Assembly: GCA_026395435.1 (NCBI GenBank)
Contig: JAPLYT010000011.1
Span: 74,363 to 138,362, forward strand
Length of the DNA stretch: 64,000 nt
From: Candidatus Saccharimonadota bacterium
Lineage (GTDB): Bacteria > Patescibacteriota > Saccharimonadia > Saccharimonadales > AWTP1-31
Direction of reading: 5' to 3'
The position numbers were made by a program, and so were the translations under genes. Of this stretch, positions 2,386 to 64,000 are shown piece after piece. The first letter of the stretch is position 1. Every line of letters starts with the position of its first letter. Under the pieces are notes generated by a model. The model saw nothing but the letters and a program-made list of their open reading frames with translations. It searched no databases and was not told the DNA's origin.

Positions 2386-3732
2386 CTACGTTGAGAGGAA
2401 GTCGTTGAGGGCAATCCGGATGGTAGATACTCCGACGAGCCCTGCCGGAGATTTCCCGGTTCGTACAATCGGGCCGAGCGCGCCGTCAAATCCGAGTTTC
2501 TTGGCTTCGGCTACGCGTTTTTCGATATGTGGTACATGGCGTACTTCCCCGCTGAGGCCAAGCTCTCCAAAAACTACCGCGTTCTTCTTGAGCTGCATGC
2601 CTTTGCTGGCACTAGCGATTGCCATTGCCACGGCGAGATCAGCTGCAGGCTCAGTGAGTTTAATACCTCCCACGATATTAATATAGATGTCTTGGTCGGC
2701 TAGATTGAGCTTAGTCCGGCGTTCAAGCATGGCGACGAGTAGGTTGACGCGGTTTAAGTCTATGCCGCTAGCAGCCCGTTTAGGGTAGCCATAGCTCGTT
2801 TTATTTACCAGTGCTTGCACTTCAACAAGTAGAGGCCTGGTGCCTTCCATGGTGGCCAACACGATAGATCCATCGCTCACCTGTCGTTCTGCCAGCAATG
2901 ACGCTGAAGGATTCTTAACGGGAACCAGACCTTCGTCGATCATTTCAAAAATACCCGCTTCGTTGGTTGAACCATATCTGTTTTTGATGCTTCTTAGCAG
3001 TTTGAACCCACCGTAGCGATCACCTTCTAATTGCAATACAACATCCACAACATGCTCGAGGACCTTAGGTCCAGCAATAGAGCCTTCTTTTGTGACATGC
3101 CCCACAAGTACCAGAGCAGTATTGGTTTGTTTGGCGACAACACTGAGCATGTGGGTGCTATTAGTGATTTGACTAACACTTCCCGGAGCAGAGCTCACCT
3201 CACCGACCGTTATGGTCTGGATAGAATCCACGACAACAAATTTATAGTCGCCACCCGCAATTGTCGCGGCGATATCATCAGCGCTCGTACTGCTTACAAT
3301 GGATAATTGAGACCCTTTGGCACCGAGGCGGTCGGCACGCATCGAGACTTGATGCACTGACTCTTCACCACTGACATAAAGTACCGGAATTGTAGCTGCA
3401 ATACTGCTGGCGATTTGCAGCAATAAGGTGCTTTTGCCGATACCGGGCTGTCCAGCTATGAGGTTGACGCTTCCAGCCACAAAACCGCCTCCCAGTACGG
3501 TGTCTACTTCGGTGATTCCGGTAGCTACCCGTGGTTCACGTTTGAGTTTGGCAATTGCGCTGACTGATTGGGGTGTAAGCTTGGTGCCTGATTTTGTGGC
3601 GCTCGCTACAGAGTCAATCATCATTTGTTCTTGGAGTGTGTTCCACTCGCCGCACGACGTGCACCGTCCCGTCCATGTCATAGATATGGCGCCGCAATTA
3701 CTGCATTCGTATCGTATATTTTTCTTTGCCAT
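2386..3732 (-). CDS. radA: DNA repair protein RadA/Sms
   Basis: C4 zinc finger (CSNCGAISMTWTGRCTSCGEW), Walker A (GQPGIGKST), KNRYG motif (SIKNRYGSTNE) and a Lon-like C-terminal domain. I prefer the start at MAKKNIRYEC (3732) over the upstream ATG at 3750. Confidence 0.93.
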   Translation of the reverse strand: MAKKNIRYECSNCGAISMTWTGRCTSCGEWNTLQEQMMIDSVASATKSGTKLTPQSVSAIAKLKREPRVATGITEVDTVLGGGFVAGSVNLIAGQPGIGKSTLLLQIASSIAATIPVLYVSGEESVHQVSMRADRLGAKGSQLSIVSSTSADDIAATIAGGDYKFVVVDSIQTITVGEVSSAPGSVSQITNSTHMLSVVAKQTNTALVLVGHVTKEGSIAGPKVLEHVVDVVLQLEGDRYGGFKLLRSIKNRYGSTNEAGIFEMIDEGLVPVKNPSASLLAERQVSDGSIVLATMEGTRPLLVEVQALVNKTSYGYPKRAASGIDLNRVNLLVAMLERRTKLNLADQDIYINIVGGIKLTEPAADLAVAMAIASASKGMQLKKNAVVFGELGLSGEVRHVPHIEKRVAEAKKLGFDGALGPIVRTGKSPAGLVGVSTIRIALNDFLST

Positions 3733-3800
3733 AACCGAGCTTTCCCTCATCTCAAATTCAAAGACAGTGTATCATCTTTGGGTTACGAGGTTCTAGGAAT

Positions 3801-4781
3801 CTAGAATTTACTCTCGACAACGGTATCGATCCTACTATCAAGCGCTTTATTTAGTTCTTGAGCCTCTAGTGCCACCTGATTACGAGCATCGAGAGTGGTT
3901 TTATAATCAACTACATATTGCTTGGACTGAGATAATAGCGTTTTAAACGCGTTCACGCGGGCGTTATAGGCTGGTACGGCGGCGTTGTACTCTTCAATTC
4001 GATCTGCTTTTAGTAGTACATCAAGTCGACTATTTTCTGCAGCGATACTTGTCTGATCGGTATCGAGGATGGCATTATTTGTTTTTACTAACCCCTCGAG
4101 ACGGACTAAATCAGCGTCATATCGGGTTAATGTATCGCGTCGTTCCTGGAATACTGCTTGATATTTTGCCGACAAGGCCGTCACTTGTGACCGATTAATA
4201 AAATACTTTTTATAATGTGCTTCGAGAACTGGAGAAAGTTTCGCTACTTCCGTCCCTAGAATAGAATGAAGCTCATTATGAATATCTGCGCCACTATTTT
4301 TGTAGACGCCAATTTTTTCAGTTAATTGCGGATCGTTGAGCGAGTTGTAGACGGTATCAAGCTCGGCATTGATAGTCTTCTTCTCATTACTACTCAATCG
4401 TTCATAGGCTACATGAAGCATCTCGTGCGCTGAGGTGACTTGCATAATTCCCTCGAGACGCGCGTCTGTCACATTGAGCACGAATATTCCATTATTGGGC
4501 TTGTAGCATCCCAAAACAATAGTCGTTTCACCCTCTTCGCAACTTTTATAGAAGGCTGCTTTTTCTTGTAGCACTGGTTTATTCACGAAAAAGAGCTTTC
4601 GACCTTCTGCGTTCATGGTTGTTTCAGTTGCGATATTTTGAAGTGCAGCCGGAGGTGTGTAGCCACGGAGCGTATACCAATCAAAGATATCCTGCTGCTT
4701 GAATATACCGAATGCTATAACCACGATGAGACTCATCCAGAAAAGGAGTCGTGGAATATTCGAGCGTTTTTTAGGTTCCAT
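3801..4781 (-). CDS. Membrane-anchored HExxH-motif protein with C-terminal coiled coil (paralog A of an uncharacterised family)
   Basis: N-terminal TM helix (LLFWMSLIVVIAFGIF), SAHEMLHVAY motif, a second conserved NELHSILGTEVA block and a heptad-like C-terminus. It is clearly homologous to ORF 60554..61594. The likely start is MEPKKRS (4781); the ORF track begins at 4838. Confidence 0.6.
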   Translation of the reverse strand: MEPKKRSNIPRLLFWMSLIVVIAFGIFKQQDIFDWYTLRGYTPPAALQNIATETTMNAEGRKLFFVNKPVLQEKAAFYKSCEEGETTIVLGCYKPNNGIFVLNVTDARLEGIMQVTSAHEMLHVAYERLSSNEKKTINAELDTVYNSLNDPQLTEKIGVYKNSGADIHNELHSILGTEVAKLSPVLEAHYKKYFINRSQVTALSAKYQAVFQERRDTLTRYDADLVRLEGLVKTNNAILDTDQTSIAAENSRLDVLLKADRIEEYNAAVPAYNARVNAFKTLLSQSKQYVVDYKTTLDARNQVALEAQELNKALDSRIDTVVESKF

Positions 4782-4905
4782 TACGTTTAAGTATAGTGCA
4801 GAATACCTGCATCGTCGAATCAATACAGATCCTCGCAATTCTAGAGGTTTCTCCTCTAACAGATGGGTGCAATGTGATTTTGTCTCAACGGTGGAATTTC
4901 AACGC

Positions 4906-7377
4906 TTATTCGTGCTTGGTAGTAAAGGTTAGTTGGTCATTCTTAATGCCTACCGATATGATGTCGCCCTTGAGATGCGTGTCGTCCAGCAACCCCGTGG
5001 CAACAGAATCTTCGATGGTGTCTTGTAATAACCGTCGCATTGGACGAGCTCCGTTCAGTGCATCGTAGCCGTTCGCCAGCAAATGTTTCTTTGCGCCAGG
5101 GCTCACAACGAGGCCAAGTCCATGTTTTTGTAATCTAGCCCTTAGCTCATCGAGTTGCAGATCAAGAATTGTCAGTGCGTTCTTTTGGGTTAAGGCGTGA
5201 AAGACAATTACCTTATCAATACGGTTGAGAAGCTCAGGCCGCATCATCTTCTTAAGCTCGGCGTGAACTTTGTCTATGTTCTTCTCATGCAATGCTTCAA
5301 GGTCTTTCTGATCATCGGCAGAAGATGCTTGGAAACCGAGACTTGCCTCTTTCTGGAGCTTGTCGGCACCGAGGTTACTGGTCATGATGACGATGGTATT
5401 GGTAAAATCAATTTTTCGTCCTTTGGCATCGGTAAGCACCCCATCTTCGAGGATTTGTAGCAGCATATTGAACACTTCTGGGTGCGCTTTTTCAATTTCA
5501 TCAAACAGTACTAAACTGTAGGGCTGGCGTCGAATTTTATCAGTAAGCTGACCGCCTTCATCATAACCAACATATCCGGCAGGTGCACCGACGAGGCGAG
5601 CTGCGGTGTGTCGTTCCCCAAATTCACTCATGTCTATTTTTACAAGAGCTTCGCGTGAACCAAAGAATTCATCGGCTAATACACGAGCCAGTTCTGTCTT
5701 TCCGACTCCTGTTGGGCCGAGGAAAATGAATGATCCAATGGGCCTACCGGCACTAGAAATACCTGAACGACTTCTTCGTATCGATTTTGCTACTGCTTCA
5801 ACTGCTTCATCTTGTCCGATGATATGTTTGCCAAGTGTCTTTTCGAGGTTCAGAAGATACTTGGCTTCGGCTCGGATAACGCGCTGTACAGGAACCCCTG
5901 TCATTCGGGCGACAACATCTGCTACATCATCACTTTTCATAACGAGCTTATTGGTAGTCTTGCCGGAAGCTGCAAGCTTTTTGAGTTCGGCTTCTATCTG
6001 GCTGGCCCGTGTTTTAGACCGAGCGGCCCGTTCGTAATCTTCGGATTCGACAGCTTCGTCAATCCTGACATTTACGAGTTTAAGCTCTTTAGTCAATTTT
6101 CTAATCTCAGGCGGTGTCTTGCCTTTGTCGACACGCAAGTGAGCTGATGTTTCGTCGAGTAGGTCAATTGCTTTGTCGGGCATGAACCGGTCGTTAATAT
6201 ATCGTGCTGCAAAGTTGACAGTATCGACGATTACTTCATCGCTGACCGAGACATCATGAAATGCTTCATAGTGCTTGCGAAGTCCTTTAAGGATCGCAAT
6301 AGTTTCGGGGATGGTTGTTTCTGGTACTTGTACGGGCTGGAAACGGCGTTCAAGGGCGGCATCTTTTTCGATATGTTTTGTGTACTCAGCCGTGGTGGTA
6401 GCTCCAATCATTTGGATTTTACCGCGAGCTAATGCTGGCTTGAGGATATTTCCGGCGTCCATTGCCCCTTCAGCCGCACCTGCTCCGACGATAAGGTGGA
6501 GCTCATCAATAAAGACAATTGTCTTCTTGTCATCTTCGAGCTCTGCCATAACTTTTTTGAGTCGTTCTTCGAACTCACCGCGGTATTTCGTACCGGCAAT
6601 CATACCCGCAAGATCAAGCATAATAATTCGCTTGTCGATAAGACTATCGGGCACGTCTTCGGCCACGATACGCTGAGCTAACCCCTCGGCAATCGCGGTT
6701 TTACCGACACCGGGCTCACCGATCAGGACGGGATTATTTTTAGTTCGTCGATTAAGAATAGTGATGACTCGACGGATCTGAGCCTCCCGGCCAACAACAG
6801 GGTCAAGTTTATTATCTTTAGCGAGAGCGGTCATATCCGTACCAAAGAAATCGAGCGCAGTTTTGCGTGATTTTTTACCACGTTTTCGAGTGCCTGTACC
6901 ACCAGAATCTTCCATCTGTTGTCGATTGAGGAATTGCTCGAGTTCGCCAGTGAGACTTTCGACATTTATATTCATATCTCGGAGCAATATGGTCGCGCGA
7001 GCGTTTTTCTGACTGAGAATACTAAACAAAATATGCTCGGTACCACAGTATTCCTGGGTGAAATCCTGGGCAACATCATAGGCCATGCGGAGTGTGAGTT
7101 TGGCGGTTTCGCTGAGCCCCTTGGCCTCCATGTTGAGGGCAATCGCTTTGGGTGTGAGGTTCAGCGCCAGTCTCGCTCTATCAAGCGTAACTCCTGCCCC
7201 TTCAAGTATCTTTGCTCCCATGCTCACATCTTGGGCAAGGACACCAAGCAGTAGATGCTCTGTGCCGATATAGGCACTACCAAAACTACGAGCGATTGCA
7301 TCGGCGTGTTTGAGGCTTTGCAACGCATTGTCTGTGAGGTGATTTAAAAATTCGTGGAATTCTGGTGTGTCTTGCAT
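4906..7377 (-). CDS. clpC: ATP-dependent Clp protease ATP-binding subunit ClpC
   Basis: Two Clp_N repeats, two AAA+ modules ([13 protein letters not shown] and [12 protein letters not shown]), a short UVR-like linker ([20 protein letters not shown]) rather than a long ClpB M-domain, and an LGF loop (KEASLGFQ) resembling the ClpP-docking tripeptide. Confidence 0.9.
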
Positions 7378-7672: not shown

Positions 7673-7698
7673 AATAATCCGGATAAATCCGGATTATT
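7673..7698 (-). terminator. Intrinsic terminator downstream of nusA
   Basis: On the minus strand, the AATAATCCGGA / TCCGGATTATT stem is followed by TTTTTAT. It lies 30 nt after the nusA stop. Confidence 0.8.
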
Positions 7699-57488: not shown

Positions 57489-58610
57489 CTAAGCTACAAT
57501 TGCCTCCCAAGGTAGATCTTTGTCTCCAAAATGTCCATACGCGCTGGTTGCTTGATAGATAGGTCGCCGTAAATCTAATGTAGACACAATTCCTTTAACC
57601 GAACAGTGGATGAGCTCTTCTGCGAATTTCTCTATGTCTTCCTGCGTTACGGTGCCAGTACCGTACACATCGATTGTTTTCATCAATGGCTCCGATTTAC
57701 CAATCACATATGCCAGCCCTACTTCACACTTTGTTGCAAGCCCTTTGGCGACAATGTTTTTAGCAATATATCGTGCAGCGTATGCTCCACTGCGATCAAC
57801 CTTACTTGGATCCTTTCCGCTGAAGGCTCCTCCGCCAACACGGGCATAACCACCGTAGGTATCGACGACAATCTTGCGTCCAGTCAATCCCGCATCACTC
57901 TCAGGCCCTGGAATGTGCCATAAACCCGTTCCGTTAACGATAAGTGCTTCTTTGCTAATATTGAGATCATACGATTCTAGAACAGGACTAATGACATGGT
58001 CGTAGATACCTTGTTTGACCTCAGTTTCAGTAGTATCTTCATCATGGGCGGTAGCGATAACGACTGTCTCAATGCCAACTGGCTTTCCGTCTTCGTATCG
58101 TACGGTGACCTGACTTTTACCATCAGGGCGGATATAGCTAAGGATATTTTTTTCACGAACTTCATCTAATCGTCTAGTGAGCGAATGAGCAATCGCTATT
58201 GGAAGCGGCATTAGTTCGGGTGTTTCATTTACCGCAAAGCCAAACATCATTCCTTGGTCACCCGCTCCATCATCATCATTTGTACCCTGGGCGATTTCAG
58301 GAGATTGCTGATGGATATGGTTTTCGAACTGAGATTCTTGAGAGAACCCCCAATCTGGATTAGTATAGCCAAGGATTTTGATTGTATCACGGGTAATTTT
58401 TTCAAAATCAACTTTTGCAGTAGTGTTGATTTCACCGTAAAGTTCAACTCTATTTGCCCCGGCAATTGTTTCTATACCTGTTCGAGCGTGTGGATCTTGG
58501 GCAAGAATCGCGTCTAAAATAGCGTCACTAATTCGGTCGGCAATCTTATCTGGATGCCCCGCACATACACTCTCACTTGTGAAAAATGTTTGATTTGTTG
58601 ATTTTGACAT
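57489..58610 (-). CDS. metK: S-adenosylmethionine synthase
   Basis: GHPDKIADRISDA, GAGDQGMMFG and GGGAFSGKDPSKVDRS. The start is set at MSKSTNQTFF (58610), preceded by AAAGGA. The ORF-track start at 58661 would lie inside the riboswitch. Confidence 0.95.
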   Translation of the reverse strand: MSKSTNQTFFTSESVCAGHPDKIADRISDAILDAILAQDPHARTGIETIAGANRVELYGEINTTAKVDFEKITRDTIKILGYTNPDWGFSQESQFENHIHQQSPEIAQGTNDDDGAGDQGMMFGFAVNETPELMPLPIAIAHSLTRRLDEVREKNILSYIRPDGKSQVTVRYEDGKPVGIETVVIATAHDEDTTETEVKQGIYDHVISPVLESYDLNISKEALIVNGTGLWHIPGPESDAGLTGRKIVVDTYGGYARVGGGAFSGKDPSKVDRSGAYAARYIAKNIVAKGLATKCEVGLAYVIGKSEPLMKTIDVYGTGTVTQEDIEKFAEELIHCSVKGIVSTLDLRRPIYQATSAYGHFGDKDLPWEAIVA

Positions 58611-58760
58611 AAAAATATCCTTTCGTGCCGCATAGCTCCGGAAAGGATGAAGAGTATTCATATCTTTCCGCCTTATGTGGCGGCTAGATGGAGCACCTTG
58701 TCCTTAGTGGGTAGGTTGCCGGCAGGTCGACGAGCTAGTTCTCTCGCTGCACTCTTTATA
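58611..58760 (-). promoter_or_regulatory. SAM riboswitch of the SAM-I clan (SAM-IV or SAM-I/IV-like) with SD-sequestering expression platform
   Basis: The minus-sense RNA reads AAGAGUGCAGCGAG...CUCGUCGACCUGCCGGCAACCUACC...GGUGCUCC. This includes the GCCGGCAACC and GGUGC core strings of SAM-I-clan aptamers. Downstream, AUCCUUUC can pair either with the SD GAAAGGAU or with the upstream GGAAAGAU. Confidence 0.6.
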
Positions 58761-58774
58761 TTTACGTTGTTAAC

Positions 58775-60063: not shown

Positions 60064-60137
60064 TGGGGATTGGCCAAGTGGTAAGGCAGAGGATTCTGGT
60101 TCCTCGATCGGGGGTTCGAATCCCTCATCCCCAGCCA
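60064..60137 (+). tRNA. tRNA-Gln (anticodon CUG), CCA encoded
   Basis: The manual fold gives acceptor TGGGGAT/ATCCCCA, a D arm GCCAAGTGGTAAGGC, anticodon stem GAGGA/TCCTC with loop TTCTGGT, a T arm GGGGG-TTCGAAT-CCCTC, discriminator G and CCA. It resembles E. coli tRNA-Gln closely. Confidence 0.9.
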
Positions 60138-60230
60138 TATAGAACGGAGGCCTGTTTCTAACTCGTTTTTCTCTCCGTCACCTCTGTTATTTACTGGTTT
60201 TGAAAAAGTTAGATTATCCAATTTTAAAGT

Positions 60231-60434
60231 GTGCATAATAGAATGCCTGTAATTCTGCACCAAGAAGATGAATCTGCTTGGCTTGCACCCTCGCATGATA
60301 ATGACCGAAGCGCCATAGAGGCCTTACTGCGTCCATACGAAGATAATGGTTTAGAAATGTTTGAGGTTAGCAGGGACGTGAATGTTGCAAGGACGAATGA
60401 TGAACATCTCATCTATCCCCTTAACAGTCAGTGA
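60231..60434 (+). pseudogene. C-terminal remnant of an SRAP (YedK-like, SOS response-associated peptidase) gene
   Basis: The 67-aa ORF reads RMPVILHQEDESAWL...LLRPYEDNGLEMFEVSRDVNVARTNDEHLIYPL, which matches only the last third of SRAP proteins. The N-terminal catalytic Cys region is absent, and an in-frame stop lies just upstream. Confidence 0.65.
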
Positions 60435-60553
60435 GTGTACCACCTCTGAGTGTGAATAAAGCCTGAAGGTGGAAAAGCCTAAGCCAGTACCCCCACAGCT
60501 ACTTGGATTATACACCCAGCCTGCCAATGAAATGCTACTACGATTAGCGCTTA

Positions 60554-61594
60554 TCAAATGCCGCTGGAAATGTTTTGTGCAGATTTAAGATTAGTAAATA
60601 TAGCCTGATAGTCTTTTAGCCGAGCATTGAATGAGTCAACAGCGCTATTGTATGCCGAAAGCTCACTGTTGTAGATATCAACATCTTTGTTAAAGATTGG
60701 TTCGTTAAGATTGTAGCCGTAAATATTCCCATTATAGGACGCTGAGTCCATATATTTCTTTACGCCTTTGGTGACCTCTAGAGTGTGGTTTAACTGTGTT
60801 CCAAGCCCATCAATTCGTGTCCTTTCCGCTGTAAGGCTTGATTCAATTTCAGAAATCGTTGATCTTACTTGTCTCTCTGCGTCAACATTATTCTGTCTAG
60901 ACGTAAAGTATTTTGAATAGTGTTCTTCTAGCTGAGAGTCCGAAATTGCTACTTCCGTACCAATAAGTGAGTGCAGTTCGTTATCTAGCGTGGCAACATC
61001 AACCTTATTATCTAAATATGGTTGAACCATGTCGTTGAAATCTTTATCGTCTATATTTGAGGTCTTCATGGACTCAACTTCTGAATTGATAGTAGTTTTT
61101 TCTGTGCTATCCATTTCTGAGTAAGCCTTATGAAGCATTTCATGCGCAGCCGAGATGTTCATAAGTCCAGAAATTCTGTCGTCTGGAATATTGAGAATGT
61201 AGATTTTATTATCAGTCTGTATGAAACAACCATATTCAATTATTTGGTCGCTGTCACCAGGACAGTGGTTTTGAATAGTTGGATAATCAACTATCTCAGG
61301 GTTTGTTGAGTAAAACAGCGCCTTACCATGTTGATTCATGCCACTTTGATCGGCCAACTGCTTTACTTTTTCTGGACCACTGTAGAATGCGACAGTAAAT
61401 TGATCATGAAACGCACTGGATATAGCAGGTACGACAATAAATAAAATCACTAATACAGAAAGGAAGATCTTAGTTTTTGATCGTTCCTTCTTGACCTTAG
61501 ATTCCTTGCGTTTTATATGTTTAGGGTGGTTTTTGGTTTCTTGTAGATCAGATTCTCCGAATAAGTCTTTTAGTTCCTCATTGACGTAAGTCAT
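60554..61594 (-). CDS. Membrane-anchored HExxH-motif protein with C-terminal coiled coil (paralog B)
   Basis: Lys-rich N-terminus, a TM helix (IFLSVLVILFIVVPAI), AAHEMLHKAY, and DNELHSLIGTEVA, LEEHYSKYF and YNSAVDSFNARL blocks colinear with ORF 3801..4781. Confidence 0.6.
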   Translation of the reverse strand: MTYVNEELKDLFGESDLQETKNHPKHIKRKESKVKKERSKTKIFLSVLVILFIVVPAISSAFHDQFTVAFYSGPEKVKQLADQSGMNQHGKALFYSTNPEIVDYPTIQNHCPGDSDQIIEYGCFIQTDNKIYILNIPDDRISGLMNISAAHEMLHKAYSEMDSTEKTTINSEVESMKTSNIDDKDFNDMVQPYLDNKVDVATLDNELHSLIGTEVAISDSQLEEHYSKYFTSRQNNVDAERQVRSTISEIESSLTAERTRIDGLGTQLNHTLEVTKGVKKYMDSASYNGNIYGYNLNEPIFNKDVDIYNSELSAYNSAVDSFNARLKDYQAIFTNLKSAQNISSGI

Positions 61595-61602
61595 AGCTTC
61601 GA

Positions 61603-61896
61603 TTAGTCGCGATCAACGCCAAATATCAGATCCATAACTGGCTGTATAAGAGGCGAGTTAATTGTTGTCAAGGTTGTAGAATAGAATACTTTGTTCTTGT
61701 TTGTGTATACAGTGGTTCTTCCCGCCGCTATCTTTGTATCACCATATTCTTCTATTGGAAGTACTTTTGTGCCTGTGAATCCCTTTTTGGACAGTTTTGA
61801 CGTTGATATAGTCAAGTCGCCAATTTTAAGCTCACCTGTGGTTTTAAGCTTACGTAAGCATTTTTCTAAGACCTTGGGTGCTATTAGGATACTCAC
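61603..61896 (-). CDS. Hypothetical 97-aa protein
   Basis: The ORF's stop lies 8 nt before the start of the HExxH paralog B gene. No motif I recognise. Confidence 0.4.
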   Translation of the reverse strand: MSILIAPKVLEKCLRKLKTTGELKIGDLTISTSKLSKKGFTGTKVLPIEEYGDTKIAAGRTTVYTNKNKVFYSTTLTTINSPLIQPVMDLIFGVDRD

Positions 61897-61919
61897 ACAT
61901 TTGTATACTTCGCTAAATA

Positions 61920-62195
61920 CTAAGTCAGCAGTCTTTTGTTGTTGCCCTTTGAAAAGTAGTGCATCGCCCGCGTGCCGACCGAATGAAATATATTTCCACC
62001 AAGATCAAAATCAAAACTGAAACTTGTAGAGTTTGCAACGGGTATGAAATACACACTGTTACTCTTATGAGTAAGAAGGTAACCATACCCTTCAATCTGA
62101 TCATATTCAATCTCTTCTCCGTTGATCACACAATGATCTGAGTAGAAATCATAAGATTTTCCGGGAGCATAAGGTACTGTTGCAATTTTTTTCAT
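61920..62195 (-). CDS. Hypothetical 91-aa protein
   Basis: ORF 23 nt upstream of the 97-aa ORF on the same strand. No motif I recognise. Confidence 0.4.
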   Translation of the reverse strand: MKKIATVPYAPGKSYDFYSDHCVINGEEIEYDQIEGYGYLLTHKSNSVYFIPVANSTSFSFDFDLGGNIFHSVGTRAMHYFSKGNNKRLLT

Positions 62196-62271
62196 AAGAT
62201 TATAATACTAATTGTATACCATTATATTACTTGTGTCTATTCAACTAATCTAATGAATAATAGTAATGTTT

Positions 62272-62688
62272 TCATTTAGAAATTTGACTGTAAAAAATAC
62301 GTTCTAAATCACCAACCTTAGCAGACCCTGGAAATCTAGCAATCTGTAGAAACATTGAAATAATACCCCAAAACAATGCGACTACTGCCAGTTTTATATT
62401 ATTATGAGCAAAAAAGTAAATAGACACACCTGGACAGGTGACCCACATTAATTTTTTCACAAAAACGCCATAATTTGCAATCGTAGCATTTACAATATAC
62501 TTACAAAATATAGTCCACACGAAGTTCAAGCTCATTACTATTAATATTGAGTGTAAGATACCAAATTTTAATAGTAAAAAAACTCCGATACCCATAGATA
62601 AGAATGCAGGCCACGATGACCACTCCATGGCTCTAAGTTGAACGAATCTCAGTATTTCATCTTCGCTATAACCCTTGAGTGTTAGCAT
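62272..62688 (-). CDS. Integral membrane protein (about 4 TM helices), unknown function
   Basis: 138 aa, strongly hydrophobic. First gene of the minus-strand four-gene cluster. Confidence 0.45.
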   Translation of the reverse strand: MLTLKGYSEDEILRFVQLRAMEWSSWPAFLSMGIGVFLLLKFGILHSILIVMSLNFVWTIFCKYIVNATIANYGVFVKKLMWVTCPGVSIYFFAHNNIKLAVVALFWGIISMFLQIARFPGSAKVGDLERIFYSQISK

Positions 62689-62794
62689 ACTAATATTATC
62701 CTTCTATTTCAGATTAATTCAATGTCAAATAGGTTATAGTTAGACTATAGCTTTGTTTGTTATGTAAGATATAGAAAAACAATGGAGAATCAAA

Positions 62795-63382
62795 TTGAGC
62801 TTACTTAGAAAAAAACATAAAACGGTTCATGTTACTCAATCTACGTTGGAGCTTGCAAATTTTATCAGTACTTCAGCGGCAAGCAGTATTAATGCCCATG
62901 AAGATGAACTCAAAAAGCAATTTGATGTTGATAATGTTAAGGGTTCCAATATGTTAATAGCTATTTACCTTGAGTACTTGAGTCTTTATGCGCATTTAGT
63001 AAATAGAACAGCTTTTAATAATTTGGGTGATGCCGGACGAAATAAGCTTTAAGATATTATATGGCCAGTTCTTATAGATAACGCAAACAATAGTTATTTT
63101 GAAGGTGATTTAACAGATTCTACCAAAGCAATTAAAATGCAACTAAATGTTGCGGATGAAATTTACGGCCATTGTAGTGAACTAACTCCTCCACCTGAAA
63201 GCCCGTTACTTAAAGACGCAATGAGTAACATGATTGCTACTCGCATAGATGGTATTTTATATGAAAGTGATGATAGCATCGTTGATTTGAATATATTAGA
63301 AACTGGAATCTTATGCAGCGGACAAATTATACGATTTCTAACTGAATTGAAAGAAGCAGATTTTATTGACCTTAAGAAGTAA
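62795..63382 (+). pseudogene. Hypothetical ORF interrupted by a single in-frame TAA (62795..63052 and 63053..63382 share one frame)
   Basis: TTG start 7 nt after GGAG. The frame is open on both sides of the TAA at 63050..63052, including the 84 AT-rich nt before the next ATG (63137). Confidence 0.3.
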
Positions 63383-63396
63383 CAAAAGGGGGTACA

Positions 63397-64000
63397 TTGT
63401 TAGTCCTTGAAGAAAAGTTGACGTGGATATCAAGCCATAATAATGTCTCCGTTGACGTTTTTATGAACGTTAGAGTTCATCAGCTAGACTCGGACACCGT
63501 AGTTATTATCCTGCCCGGCGTAGATGGCTCAGTGGATGGATATCAGGATAAATACATACGAATGGCAGAAAAAATAGTTATGAATCAACAGAAGGCCGTT
63601 GTGAGAGTTTCAAATGACTTCATTACATCATTTCATTGGGAAGATAACTTTAGACAAGCAATCGACTATGTAAATAACAATTCTCAAAAGCTATTCAATA
63701 AAGATCGAGTGAACATTGAAGTTATTTCACACTCAGCCGGTGCTTCTGTGGCAGCCTGGTTGGCATGGGAATACCCAAACATTACGCAACTAGTCCTTAT
63801 TAACACTGCTGCTAAACTTCAACCCGAACGTATACTAGGTGGACTCGGAAAATACAAGAATAAAGCCCAGCTGGTGTATGGCAGCGAAGATCCGTCAATT
63901 GATTTCATACAAGAGTTACCAAGTACATTTGAAGTACATACTGTTCAGAACGCTGACCTCTATTTTTCCGGTGATCACTTAGAGACATTCATTAACCTAG
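63397..64000 (+). CDS. Alpha/beta-hydrolase-fold protein (3' end beyond window)
   Basis: This is my own translation; the ORF is absent from the supplied track because it runs off the window. The frame is open from 63376 to 64000. There is a TTG at 63397, 4 nt after AAAGGGGG (alternative ATG at 63463), a nucleophile elbow VISHSAGASV, and VVIILPGVDGS near the N-terminus. Confidence 0.55.
   Translation, partial: MLVLEEKLTWISSHNNVSVDVFMNVRVHQLDSDTVVIILPGVDGSVDGYQDKYIRMAEKIVMNQQKAVVRVSNDFITSFHWEDNFRQAIDYVNNNSQKLFNKDRVNIEVISHSAGASVAAWLAWEYPNITQLVLINTAAKLQPERILGGLGKYKNKAQLVYGSEDPSIDFIQELPSTFEVHTVQNADLYFSGDHLETFINL

Follow-up and report, generated by a model that had tools for sequence, protein, structure and literature searches.

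Among the genes described so far, the closest counterpart to the one considered here is SEML1_0511 of Southlakia epibionticum ML1, a 999-nt hypothetical gene encoding 332 amino acids (aa) and located between the Clp ATPase gene SEML1_0512 and the RadA gene SEML1_0510 (Wang et al., 2023, Cell; PMC10633639). It has been given in supplementary tables only, as 'hypothetical protein', the main text being silent on it. In Table S2, its residues 41-215 have been assigned by DPAM to the ECOD group 'Metalloproteases (zincins) catalytic domain' via e4dv8A2, with a probability of 0.857, and one of three AlphaFold-database neighbours of the protein is named 'Peptidase M48 domain-containing protein' (PMC10633639). 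The gene considered here, termed copy A, lies on a window of 64,000 nucleotides (the whole stretch of DNA that was analysed) from contig JAPLYT010000011.1 of a Candidatus Saccharimonadota bacterium, which also carries a divergent paralogue, copy B. Copy A (326 aa) and SEML1_0511 share the same gene order, namely nusA, the Clp ATPase gene, the gene itself (designated X) and radA, with a penicillin-binding protein (PBP) gene and tyrS nearby, and the domain detected by DPAM in the latter corresponds to the core domain of the former (residues 40-200). PDB entry 4dv8, the reference for the SEML1_0511 domain, is also found in the list of Foldseek matches obtained with that core. Their synteny is identical, their lengths are similar and their domain ranges match, all of which points to orthology between the two genes.

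Zincins of the gluzincin type are built as a beta-sheet, followed by a helix carrying the HExxH motif and then by a later helix bearing a glutamate. The anthrax lethal factor (MEROPS M34) is a soluble toxin of large size with several domains, in which the residues concerned are H686, H690 and E735, with a spacing of 45 and a tyrosine shortly before the glutamate. The minigluzincins and M48 peptidases, such as abylysin (4jiu) and HtpX, have a very small HExxH core with a downstream ligand helix and are membrane-associated, HtpX being polytopic with a site that faces the cytoplasm. Minimal HExxH zincin domains are also present in PolyVal, IrrE/ImmA (M78) and SprT-like proteins, which are cytoplasmic or virion-borne. 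Among predominantly helical systems, LemA comprises an N-terminal transmembrane (TM) anchor with an elongated helical domain directly after it and no fused protease domain, while the FtsEX-controlled proteins EnvC, PcsB, RipC and CwlO combine a coiled-coil hairpin with M23, CHAP or NlpC/P60 domains.

Compared with these systems, copy A is best read as a Saccharibacteria-wide core gene for a putative membrane-tethered, outward-facing metallopeptidase of the gluzincin type. That the protein is an active extracytoplasmic zincin hydrolase appears fairly probable, a view which draws on motif conservation, the predicted fold and the predicted membrane topology. The two copies and the parts of copy A to which the following sections refer are as follows.

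3801..4781, minus strand: copy A, the core copy, 326 aa, with TM anchor, zincin-like ectodomain and helical hairpin
4701..4757, minus strand: N-terminal TM helix, residues 9-27 (AlphaFold2 helix and family-wide hydrophobic 19-mer)
4182..4664, minus strand: core alpha/beta domain, residues 40-200, with zincin-like predicted topology (core model, weak Foldseek matches, DPAM)
4506..4541, minus strand: cysteine pair C81 (4539..4541) and C92 (4506..4508), from alignments; putative disulfide
4413..4427, minus strand: HEMLH (H119, E120, H123), putative zinc-binding and catalytic motif, from alignments
4263..4277, minus strand: NELHS (N169-S173), with E170 as candidate third zinc ligand, from alignments
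3840..4193, minus strand: two-helix antiparallel hairpin (helices 197-258 and 262-314), predicted by AlphaFold2
3945..3989, minus strand: YNAAVPAYNARVNAF, LemA-like motif opening the second hairpin helix (hhalign to LemA)
60554..61594, minus strand: copy B, 346 aa, a diverged paralogue built like copy A, with HEMLH, NELHS and the cysteine pair intact
61130..61144, minus strand: HEMLH of copy B
60968..60982, minus strand: NELHS of copy B

Paralogy, conserved motifs and predicted fold

A preliminary description of this DNA, made from its letters and open reading frames (ORFs), had proposed that the two ORFs align over their whole length. BLASTP has confirmed them as paralogues (28% identity, 50% positives, E 2e-40, ~315 residues), with a similarity far beyond chance, and all the peptide blocks quoted at the time have been found in the translations of both. 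The notion of a two-member family stands inside the window only, where tblastn has found no third paralogue; beyond it, an exhaustive profile search with the core domain has recovered at least 1300 clusters (50% identity) at E<=1e-3, 1123 of them at E<=1e-10; the other ~180 make up a distant tail through which the family might connect to a named one. The mechanical ORF of copy A reaches upstream to a TTG at 4838, and the ATG at 4781 is the supported start, since homologues begin at an aligned M-x-P-K-K.

Non-conservation of the HExxH residues, which had been set beforehand as the outcome refuting a protease-like protein, has not been seen: the motif is kept in 391 of 392 full-length members, 337 of which read HEMLH. 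An alignment of 35 sequences, extending down to 26% identity, has H119, E120, H123, E170, H172, S173, C81 and C92 invariant, together with Y126, Y160, E178, R197, Y265, N266 and N273. When the most divergent clades are added, H119, E120, H123, E170, S173, C81, C92, Y160, G176 and T177 are still invariant, and H172 is replaced by Asp in two divergent members (P0295 and P0302). A second conserved Glu/His block had been suggested as a possible source of a metal ligand, and E170 is a candidate that agrees with this suggestion. Because this residue is invariant, with H172 sometimes being Asp, Glu170 is a better third-ligand candidate than His172. The wider motif xExxSxxGT occurs in 388 of 392 full-length members, and its Glu lies 47-49 residues past the second His in 356 of the 387 members with both motifs. 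Exactly two ectodomain cysteines are present in 383 of 391 members. The sole full-length member without HExxH, P0253, reads HQMLH, with the catalytic Glu replaced by Gln, and may be a naturally inactive variant.

Prediction with AlphaFold2 on the family alignment has given a confident model of copy A (predicted local distance difference test, pLDDT, 92.3; predicted template modelling score, pTM, 0.82). Since the hairpin dominated the Foldseek search with the full model, which returned coiled coils only (PI3K p85 iSH2, HlyD, LipC), the core was refolded separately (pLDDT 91.9, pTM 0.89). In both the full and the core models, strands 70-72, 91-94 and 98-102 precede the active-site helix 112-127, which bears HEMLH and is followed by two more helices and then by helix 167-178, bearing NELHS. 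The model thus contains topological features of a zincin, with a small sheet N-terminal to the HExxH helix and a Glu on a separate downstream helix, and the core, which in the full model extends from residue ~45 to ~190, looks like a small alpha/beta domain of zincin topology.

Fold comparisons with the core are faint but thematically consistent. Once DNA gyrase and topoisomerase IV chains are left aside, the weak Foldseek matches in the PDB belong either to zincins or to toxin chains related to the lethal factor. They include the anthrax lethal factor itself (4pks, 4pku, 4dv8, 1pwq), Certhrax, abylysin 4jiu, collagenase H 4arf and an M32 carboxypeptidase, BsuCP 3hq2, with E values of 0.4-3 and TM-scores of 0.3-0.43. 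In the BFVD, many matches are unnamed, and where a function is given in the name, it is almost always that of a metallopeptidase (PolyVal metallopeptidase, IrrE N-terminal-like, SprT-like, 'fused to zincin protease', zinc-binding metallopeptidase), at E >=0.03, probability <=0.96 and TM-score <=0.55. Taken with the published DPAM assignment and the predicted zincin-like fold, these matches agree with the zinc-protease-like ectodomain that had been proposed. Much as in the lethal factor, the HExxH helix of copy A comes after a small sheet, the Glu lies ~47 residues past the second His and Y160 would be the upstream tyrosine. Lethal-factor chains head the PDB list of the core, but at E values of 0.4-2 and TM-scores of 0.35-0.43, which are not significant, and no match to Pfam ATLF or Peptidase_M90 has been obtained in the core sequences scanned. 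Unlike that toxin, copy A has a core of ~150 aa, is membrane-anchored, probably contains a disulfide and continues into a hairpin. The PolyVal, IrrE/ImmA and SprT-like domains are similar in size to the core and are its best BFVD neighbours, but they differ in location, all have E >0.03, and a relationship at the sequence level has not been detected.

The preliminary description could place the motif context in no metalloprotease family, and searches with profiles of Pfam, NCBIfam and PDB have been equally negative. Neither protein has a significant match in Pfam, NCBIfam, PHROGs or PADLOC, and nothing significant has emerged from 26 and a further 43 core sequences compared with Pfam. Sub-threshold Pfam matches to DUF6819, Peptidase_M13, DUF2268 and SprT-like recur, none of them interpretable. 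The SprT-like one (E 0.029 in 1 of 43 members) is regarded as noise. DUF6819 (PF20683) is matched by 10 of 69 core sequences, with a best E of 0.0011 over residues ~100-170, where profile positions 37-108 of 171 span the HExxH helix; this could reflect a distant relative or motif-driven noise. A PDB sequence-profile search with the core alone has returned nothing.

The N-terminal membrane anchor that had been proposed is corroborated by the AlphaFold2 helix 9-27 and by a family-wide hydrophobic segment, the best 19-residue stretch having a mean Kyte-Doolittle value of 2.16. In copy A this helix is preceded by the basic stretch MEPKKRSNIPR, and Lys/Arg residues are richer on the N-terminal flank in 217 members, versus the reverse in 74. 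In one member, P0305, the TM helix is preceded by a double zinc ribbon (PF12773, E 3e-8) at the N-terminus, a module which is typically cytoplasmic. Owing to the positive-inside bias, this zinc ribbon and the ectodomain cysteine pair, an N-in, C-out (type-II) orientation with an extracytoplasmic catalytic domain can be inferred for copy A, in keeping with the surface exposure suggested earlier. Other members are extended at the N-terminus by 40-75 residues with a high content of proline and of charged residues, and such cytoplasmic add-ons might couple the ectoprotease to intracellular partners.

A mechanism can be proposed from the model. One zinc ion would be bound by three residues, namely H119 and H123 from HEMLH and, from NELHS on the later helix, E170; E120 would act as the general base, activating and polarising the zinc-bound water. 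The invariant Y160, the mostly conserved H172, or both, are candidates for stabilising the transition state or tetrahedral intermediate, and a disulfide between C81 and C92 would brace the small beta-sheet subdomain outside the cell. The substrate class would most likely be an envelope or secreted polypeptide.

Several observations weigh against this reading. Searches of Pfam, NCBIfam and the PDB, by sequence or by profile, have linked the protein to none of the peptidase families. Foldseek with the core has given no significant match (best E 0.03-0.4, TM-score mostly <0.5), and hhalign of the core against one streptococcal HtpX has given nothing (probability 0.6%). Homologues occur in cyanobacteria without clpC or radA nearby, and therefore the clpC-radA linkage says little on function. 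In transposon sequencing (Tn-seq) of a laboratory co-culture, SEML1_0511 was non-essential at T0-T2, as were clpC and radA of S. epibionticum at all three time points (PMC10633639). The orthology of SEML1_0511 and copy A is proposed from synteny, length and domain range. Some of these points would also suit a non-catalytic zincin-like protein, acting as a metal-binding scaffold, an adhesin stalk or a sensor and using HExxH for a structural zinc or a ligand: the lack of a significant match to an active peptidase family, the dispensability of the syntenic SEML1_0511 and the HQMLH of P0253, without the catalytic Glu, are all in its favour. Pseudo-enzymes usually lose the general-base Glu. Here, this residue is kept in 391 of 392 members, among sequences down to ~25% identity, and the alignments show no variation at Y160 or at the putative third ligand, all of which makes a non-catalytic role very unlikely.

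The helical hairpin and its possible relatives

The preliminary description had placed the catalytic domain on a coiled-coil stalk formed by a long heptad-like tail. A long helical region is indeed present, but it does not form a single stalk, since helices 197-258 and 262-314 are predicted to be joined by a tight turn into an antiparallel hairpin of ~120 residues. The hairpin would probably act in spacing, in oligomerisation, or in regulating or gating the active site. Searches of the PDB have done little to place it: the sequence-profile search with the full-length query has returned coiled-coil noise only (tropomyosin, designed helical filaments), and the C-terminal profile has matched HA2 and other coiled coils.

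A coiled-coil hairpin combined with an extracytoplasmic hydrolase domain is also the architecture of cell-wall hydrolases, and it may be asked whether the zincin cleaves the peptide stems or cross-links of peptidoglycan, with the hairpin being autoinhibitory or partner-binding, as in EnvC, PcsB, RipC and CwlO. A class A PBP gene located 1-3 kb away in most loci would fit such a role, and the coiled coil of EnvC (8tzk_E) is reached by the sequence search of the PDB, at E 0.5 only. However, the coiled-coil similarity is generic and the domain order is reversed, with the catalytic domain first and the hairpin last. The HExxH-type catalytic domain is a different fold, unrelated to M23, NlpC/P60 or CHAP, and no ftsE- or ftsX-like genes have been found within ~5-6 kb in the annotated loci. 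Cell-wall hydrolysis is thus distinctly unlikely to be the function of the family.

A second comparison concerns LemA, which has in common with the copy A family an N-terminal TM anchor, an elongated helical domain and a YNxxVxxYNxxhxxF motif. Five members of one clade match Pfam LemA (PF04011) at E ~1e-5 with 24.7-26.4 bits, the gathering score being 26.2, over profile positions 80-141 and in the hairpin region, and YNAAVPAYNARVNAF in copy A has been aligned by hhalign to the YNxxVxxYNxxLxxFP region of LemA. A pneumococcal LemA bait retrieved real PF04011 proteins, and the resulting profile was built from close streptococcal sequences only. With this profile, the family C-terminal profile aligns over the 19 columns of the YNxxVxxYNxxhxxF stretch at P 0.026, compared with 0.1-0.14 for reversed controls; being limited to 19 columns with such values, the alignment is not significant. 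The window copies have no Pfam LemA match at E<=10. The LemA structure 2etd is unranked in the C-terminal PDB profile search and appears in the full-length search only, at E 6. The likeness is thus confined to 19-60 residues, is not significant for the clade of the window, and represents a lead rather than a demonstrated relationship.

These similarities allow a further interpretation, in which a LemA-type hairpin and an M48 or minigluzincin-type core form a LemA-HtpX-like module that would control the quality of secreted or membrane proteins and be expressed along with ClpC, the cytoplasmic unfoldase. In Streptococcus, lemA lies 2 nt upstream of the M48 gene htpX, a structural neighbour of SEML1_0511 bears the name 'Peptidase M48 domain-containing', and abylysin is among the weak Foldseek matches of the core, which, like the minigluzincins, is very small and membrane-associated. 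Against this, the LemA alignment is not significant, 2etd is hardly recovered, and the M48 family PF01435 has no match at E<=10 in the window proteins, nor at E<=1 in 69 cores, in addition to the null comparison with HtpX. The topologies are also at odds, copy A having a single TM helix and a catalytic domain predicted to lie outside, in contrast to the polytopic HtpX with its cytoplasm-facing site. Such a module is therefore considered unlikely. That a minimal gluzincin protease and a LemA-type hairpin have been naturally fused in this protein is likewise regarded as improbable, to much the same degree as the cell-wall role discussed above.

The clpC-X-radA locus, distribution and copy B

The surroundings of copy A are highly conserved. 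In the window, nusA, clpC, X and radA follow one another on the minus strand, with a divergent class A PBP gene beyond, and the order nusA-clpC-X-radA is also present in relatives at 40-45% identity. The neighbouring features are the following.

4906..7377, minus strand: clpC (Clp ATPase), upstream neighbour of copy A, adjoining in 65 of 72 testable loci
2386..3750, minus strand: radA, downstream neighbour of copy A, adjoining in 59 of 71 testable loci
7673..7698, minus strand: strong terminator-like hairpin, an 11-bp stem followed by a T-tract, between nusA and clpC

In a sample of 80 species-level loci, both neighbours are present in 53 of the 63 testable ones, the exceptions having one inserted gene or being non-Saccharibacteria, and a class A PBP gene lies within 1-3 kb of X in most loci. 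It had been stated that the core copy interrupts the clpC-radA adjacency. The gene is indeed flanked by both on the same strand, but there is no interruption peculiar to this genome, since the frequency of clpC-X-radA among the testable loci indicates an ancestral order. The hairpin after nusA suggests that clpC-X-radA is a transcription unit apart from nusA, and no terminator-like hairpin has been detected among clpC, X and radA. Given the common strand and the lack of a convincing terminator between the genes, their co-transcription is plausible and even probable, as far as can be judged from the DNA itself. A DNA-protein-crosslink protease of the SprT/Wss1 type, prompted by radA and by an SRAP remnant in the window, has been rejected, because the domain is predicted to lie outside the cytoplasm and the SRAP fragment is part of an unrelated island.

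Relatives of copy A comprise at least 554 clusters at 90% identity (E<=1e-3), nearly all of ~320-330 aa. These are mostly unnamed or 'hypothetical', and the few precomputed Pfam accessions are coiled-coil-type families. At least 590 species-representative genomes contain a relative, nearly all of them labelled Saccharibacteria, Saccharimonadia or Patescibacteria. The family is thus large and unnamed in Pfam and NCBIfam, with a distinctive architecture in which a TM helix, a minimal gluzincin-type domain and a LemA-like hairpin are combined. A literature search for Saccharibacteria together with HEXXH has found nothing.

Outside this group, homologues have been detected at seven cyanobacterial loci (L037, L051, L053, L054, L061, L065 and L080), from Chamaesiphon and other cyanobacterial metagenome-assembled genomes (MAGs). 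They are full-length, 34-38% identical and have intact motifs, and clpC and radA are not adjacent. The neighbourhoods of L051 and L061 are cyanobacterial in character, containing genes for the biotin carboxylase AccC, an ABC1 kinase, a PP2C and an APH-family kinase. These homologues suggest that the gene has passed horizontally between Saccharibacteria and cyanobacteria, or else that the family has a wider range. Their presence away from clpC and radA implies that the protein can work outside that context, and their occurrence in cyanobacteria speaks against a function tied specifically to life as an epibiont. Single family matches also bear the labels Leifsonia rubra (P0367) and Anaerolineaceae (P0313).

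Copy B, which is identical to NCBI MCX6727849.1 (a Candidatus Saccharibacteria MAG), is found in quite different surroundings, marked by two features.

60064..60137, plus strand: tRNA-Gln(CTG), detected by ARAGORN and Rfam, the probable integration site of the copy B island
60231..60434: C-terminal remnant of an SRAP/YedK gene, near copy B

From the tRNA onward, the GC content falls from ~0.45 to 0.40 and then 0.35. The public contig with the identical protein carries small hypothetical genes and, further on, an FtsK/SpoIIIE-type gene, and a large serine recombinase is encoded at a distance of 4 kb from the closest relative of copy B (62% identity). The region 60064..64000 is probably an integrative mobile element with its far boundary outside the window, and copy B looks like a mobile-element-borne offshoot of the family, of a clade with only nine clusters at >=38% identity. 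With its motifs intact, copy B is apparently still catalytic. A defence-system or phage-structural role has been set aside, there being no PADLOC or PHROGs support. At locus L088, the context of the B-clade relative P0301, the B-type copy is situated between tyrS and recG, with radA and a PBP gene a few kb away and an unannotated 306-aa gene after radA, so that not every B-type copy is carried by an obvious mobile element. The tail of copy B (60590..60720, minus strand) displays heptad-spaced aromatic-Asn motifs (YNGNIYGYN, FNKDVDIYN and YNSAVDSFN), suggestive of an Asn/aromatic ladder that has expanded in the hairpin, copy A carrying a single YNAAVPAYN. Elsewhere in the window, a SAM riboswitch (RF00162, 50.8 bits) at 58657..58764 (minus strand) is found directly upstream of metK (57489..58661, minus strand).

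Meaning of the family for Saccharibacteria

Saccharibacteria are epibionts with reduced genomes, whose envelope proteins mediate life on the host cell. A conserved family which is present in at least 590 species genomes and lacks a name offers a concrete and cheap biochemical target among 'dark matter' genes. The find is a modest one, because the class of fold is a familiar one, the putative orthologue has already been called zincin-like in a supplementary table, and that gene is dispensable in Tn-seq. Should the improbable fusion of a minimal gluzincin with a LemA-type hairpin prove true, the protein would be a 'Rosetta stone' for the widespread and puzzling lemA-htpX gene pair. LemA-like hairpins would then be devoted to regulating zinc proteases close to the membrane or to gating their substrates, and in Saccharibacteria an envelope protease would share a transcription unit with the ClpC unfoldase and RadA. 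If the putative metallopeptidase is active, the family would constitute a new MEROPS-level family of minimal gluzincins, and LemA-type domains might be illuminated as well.

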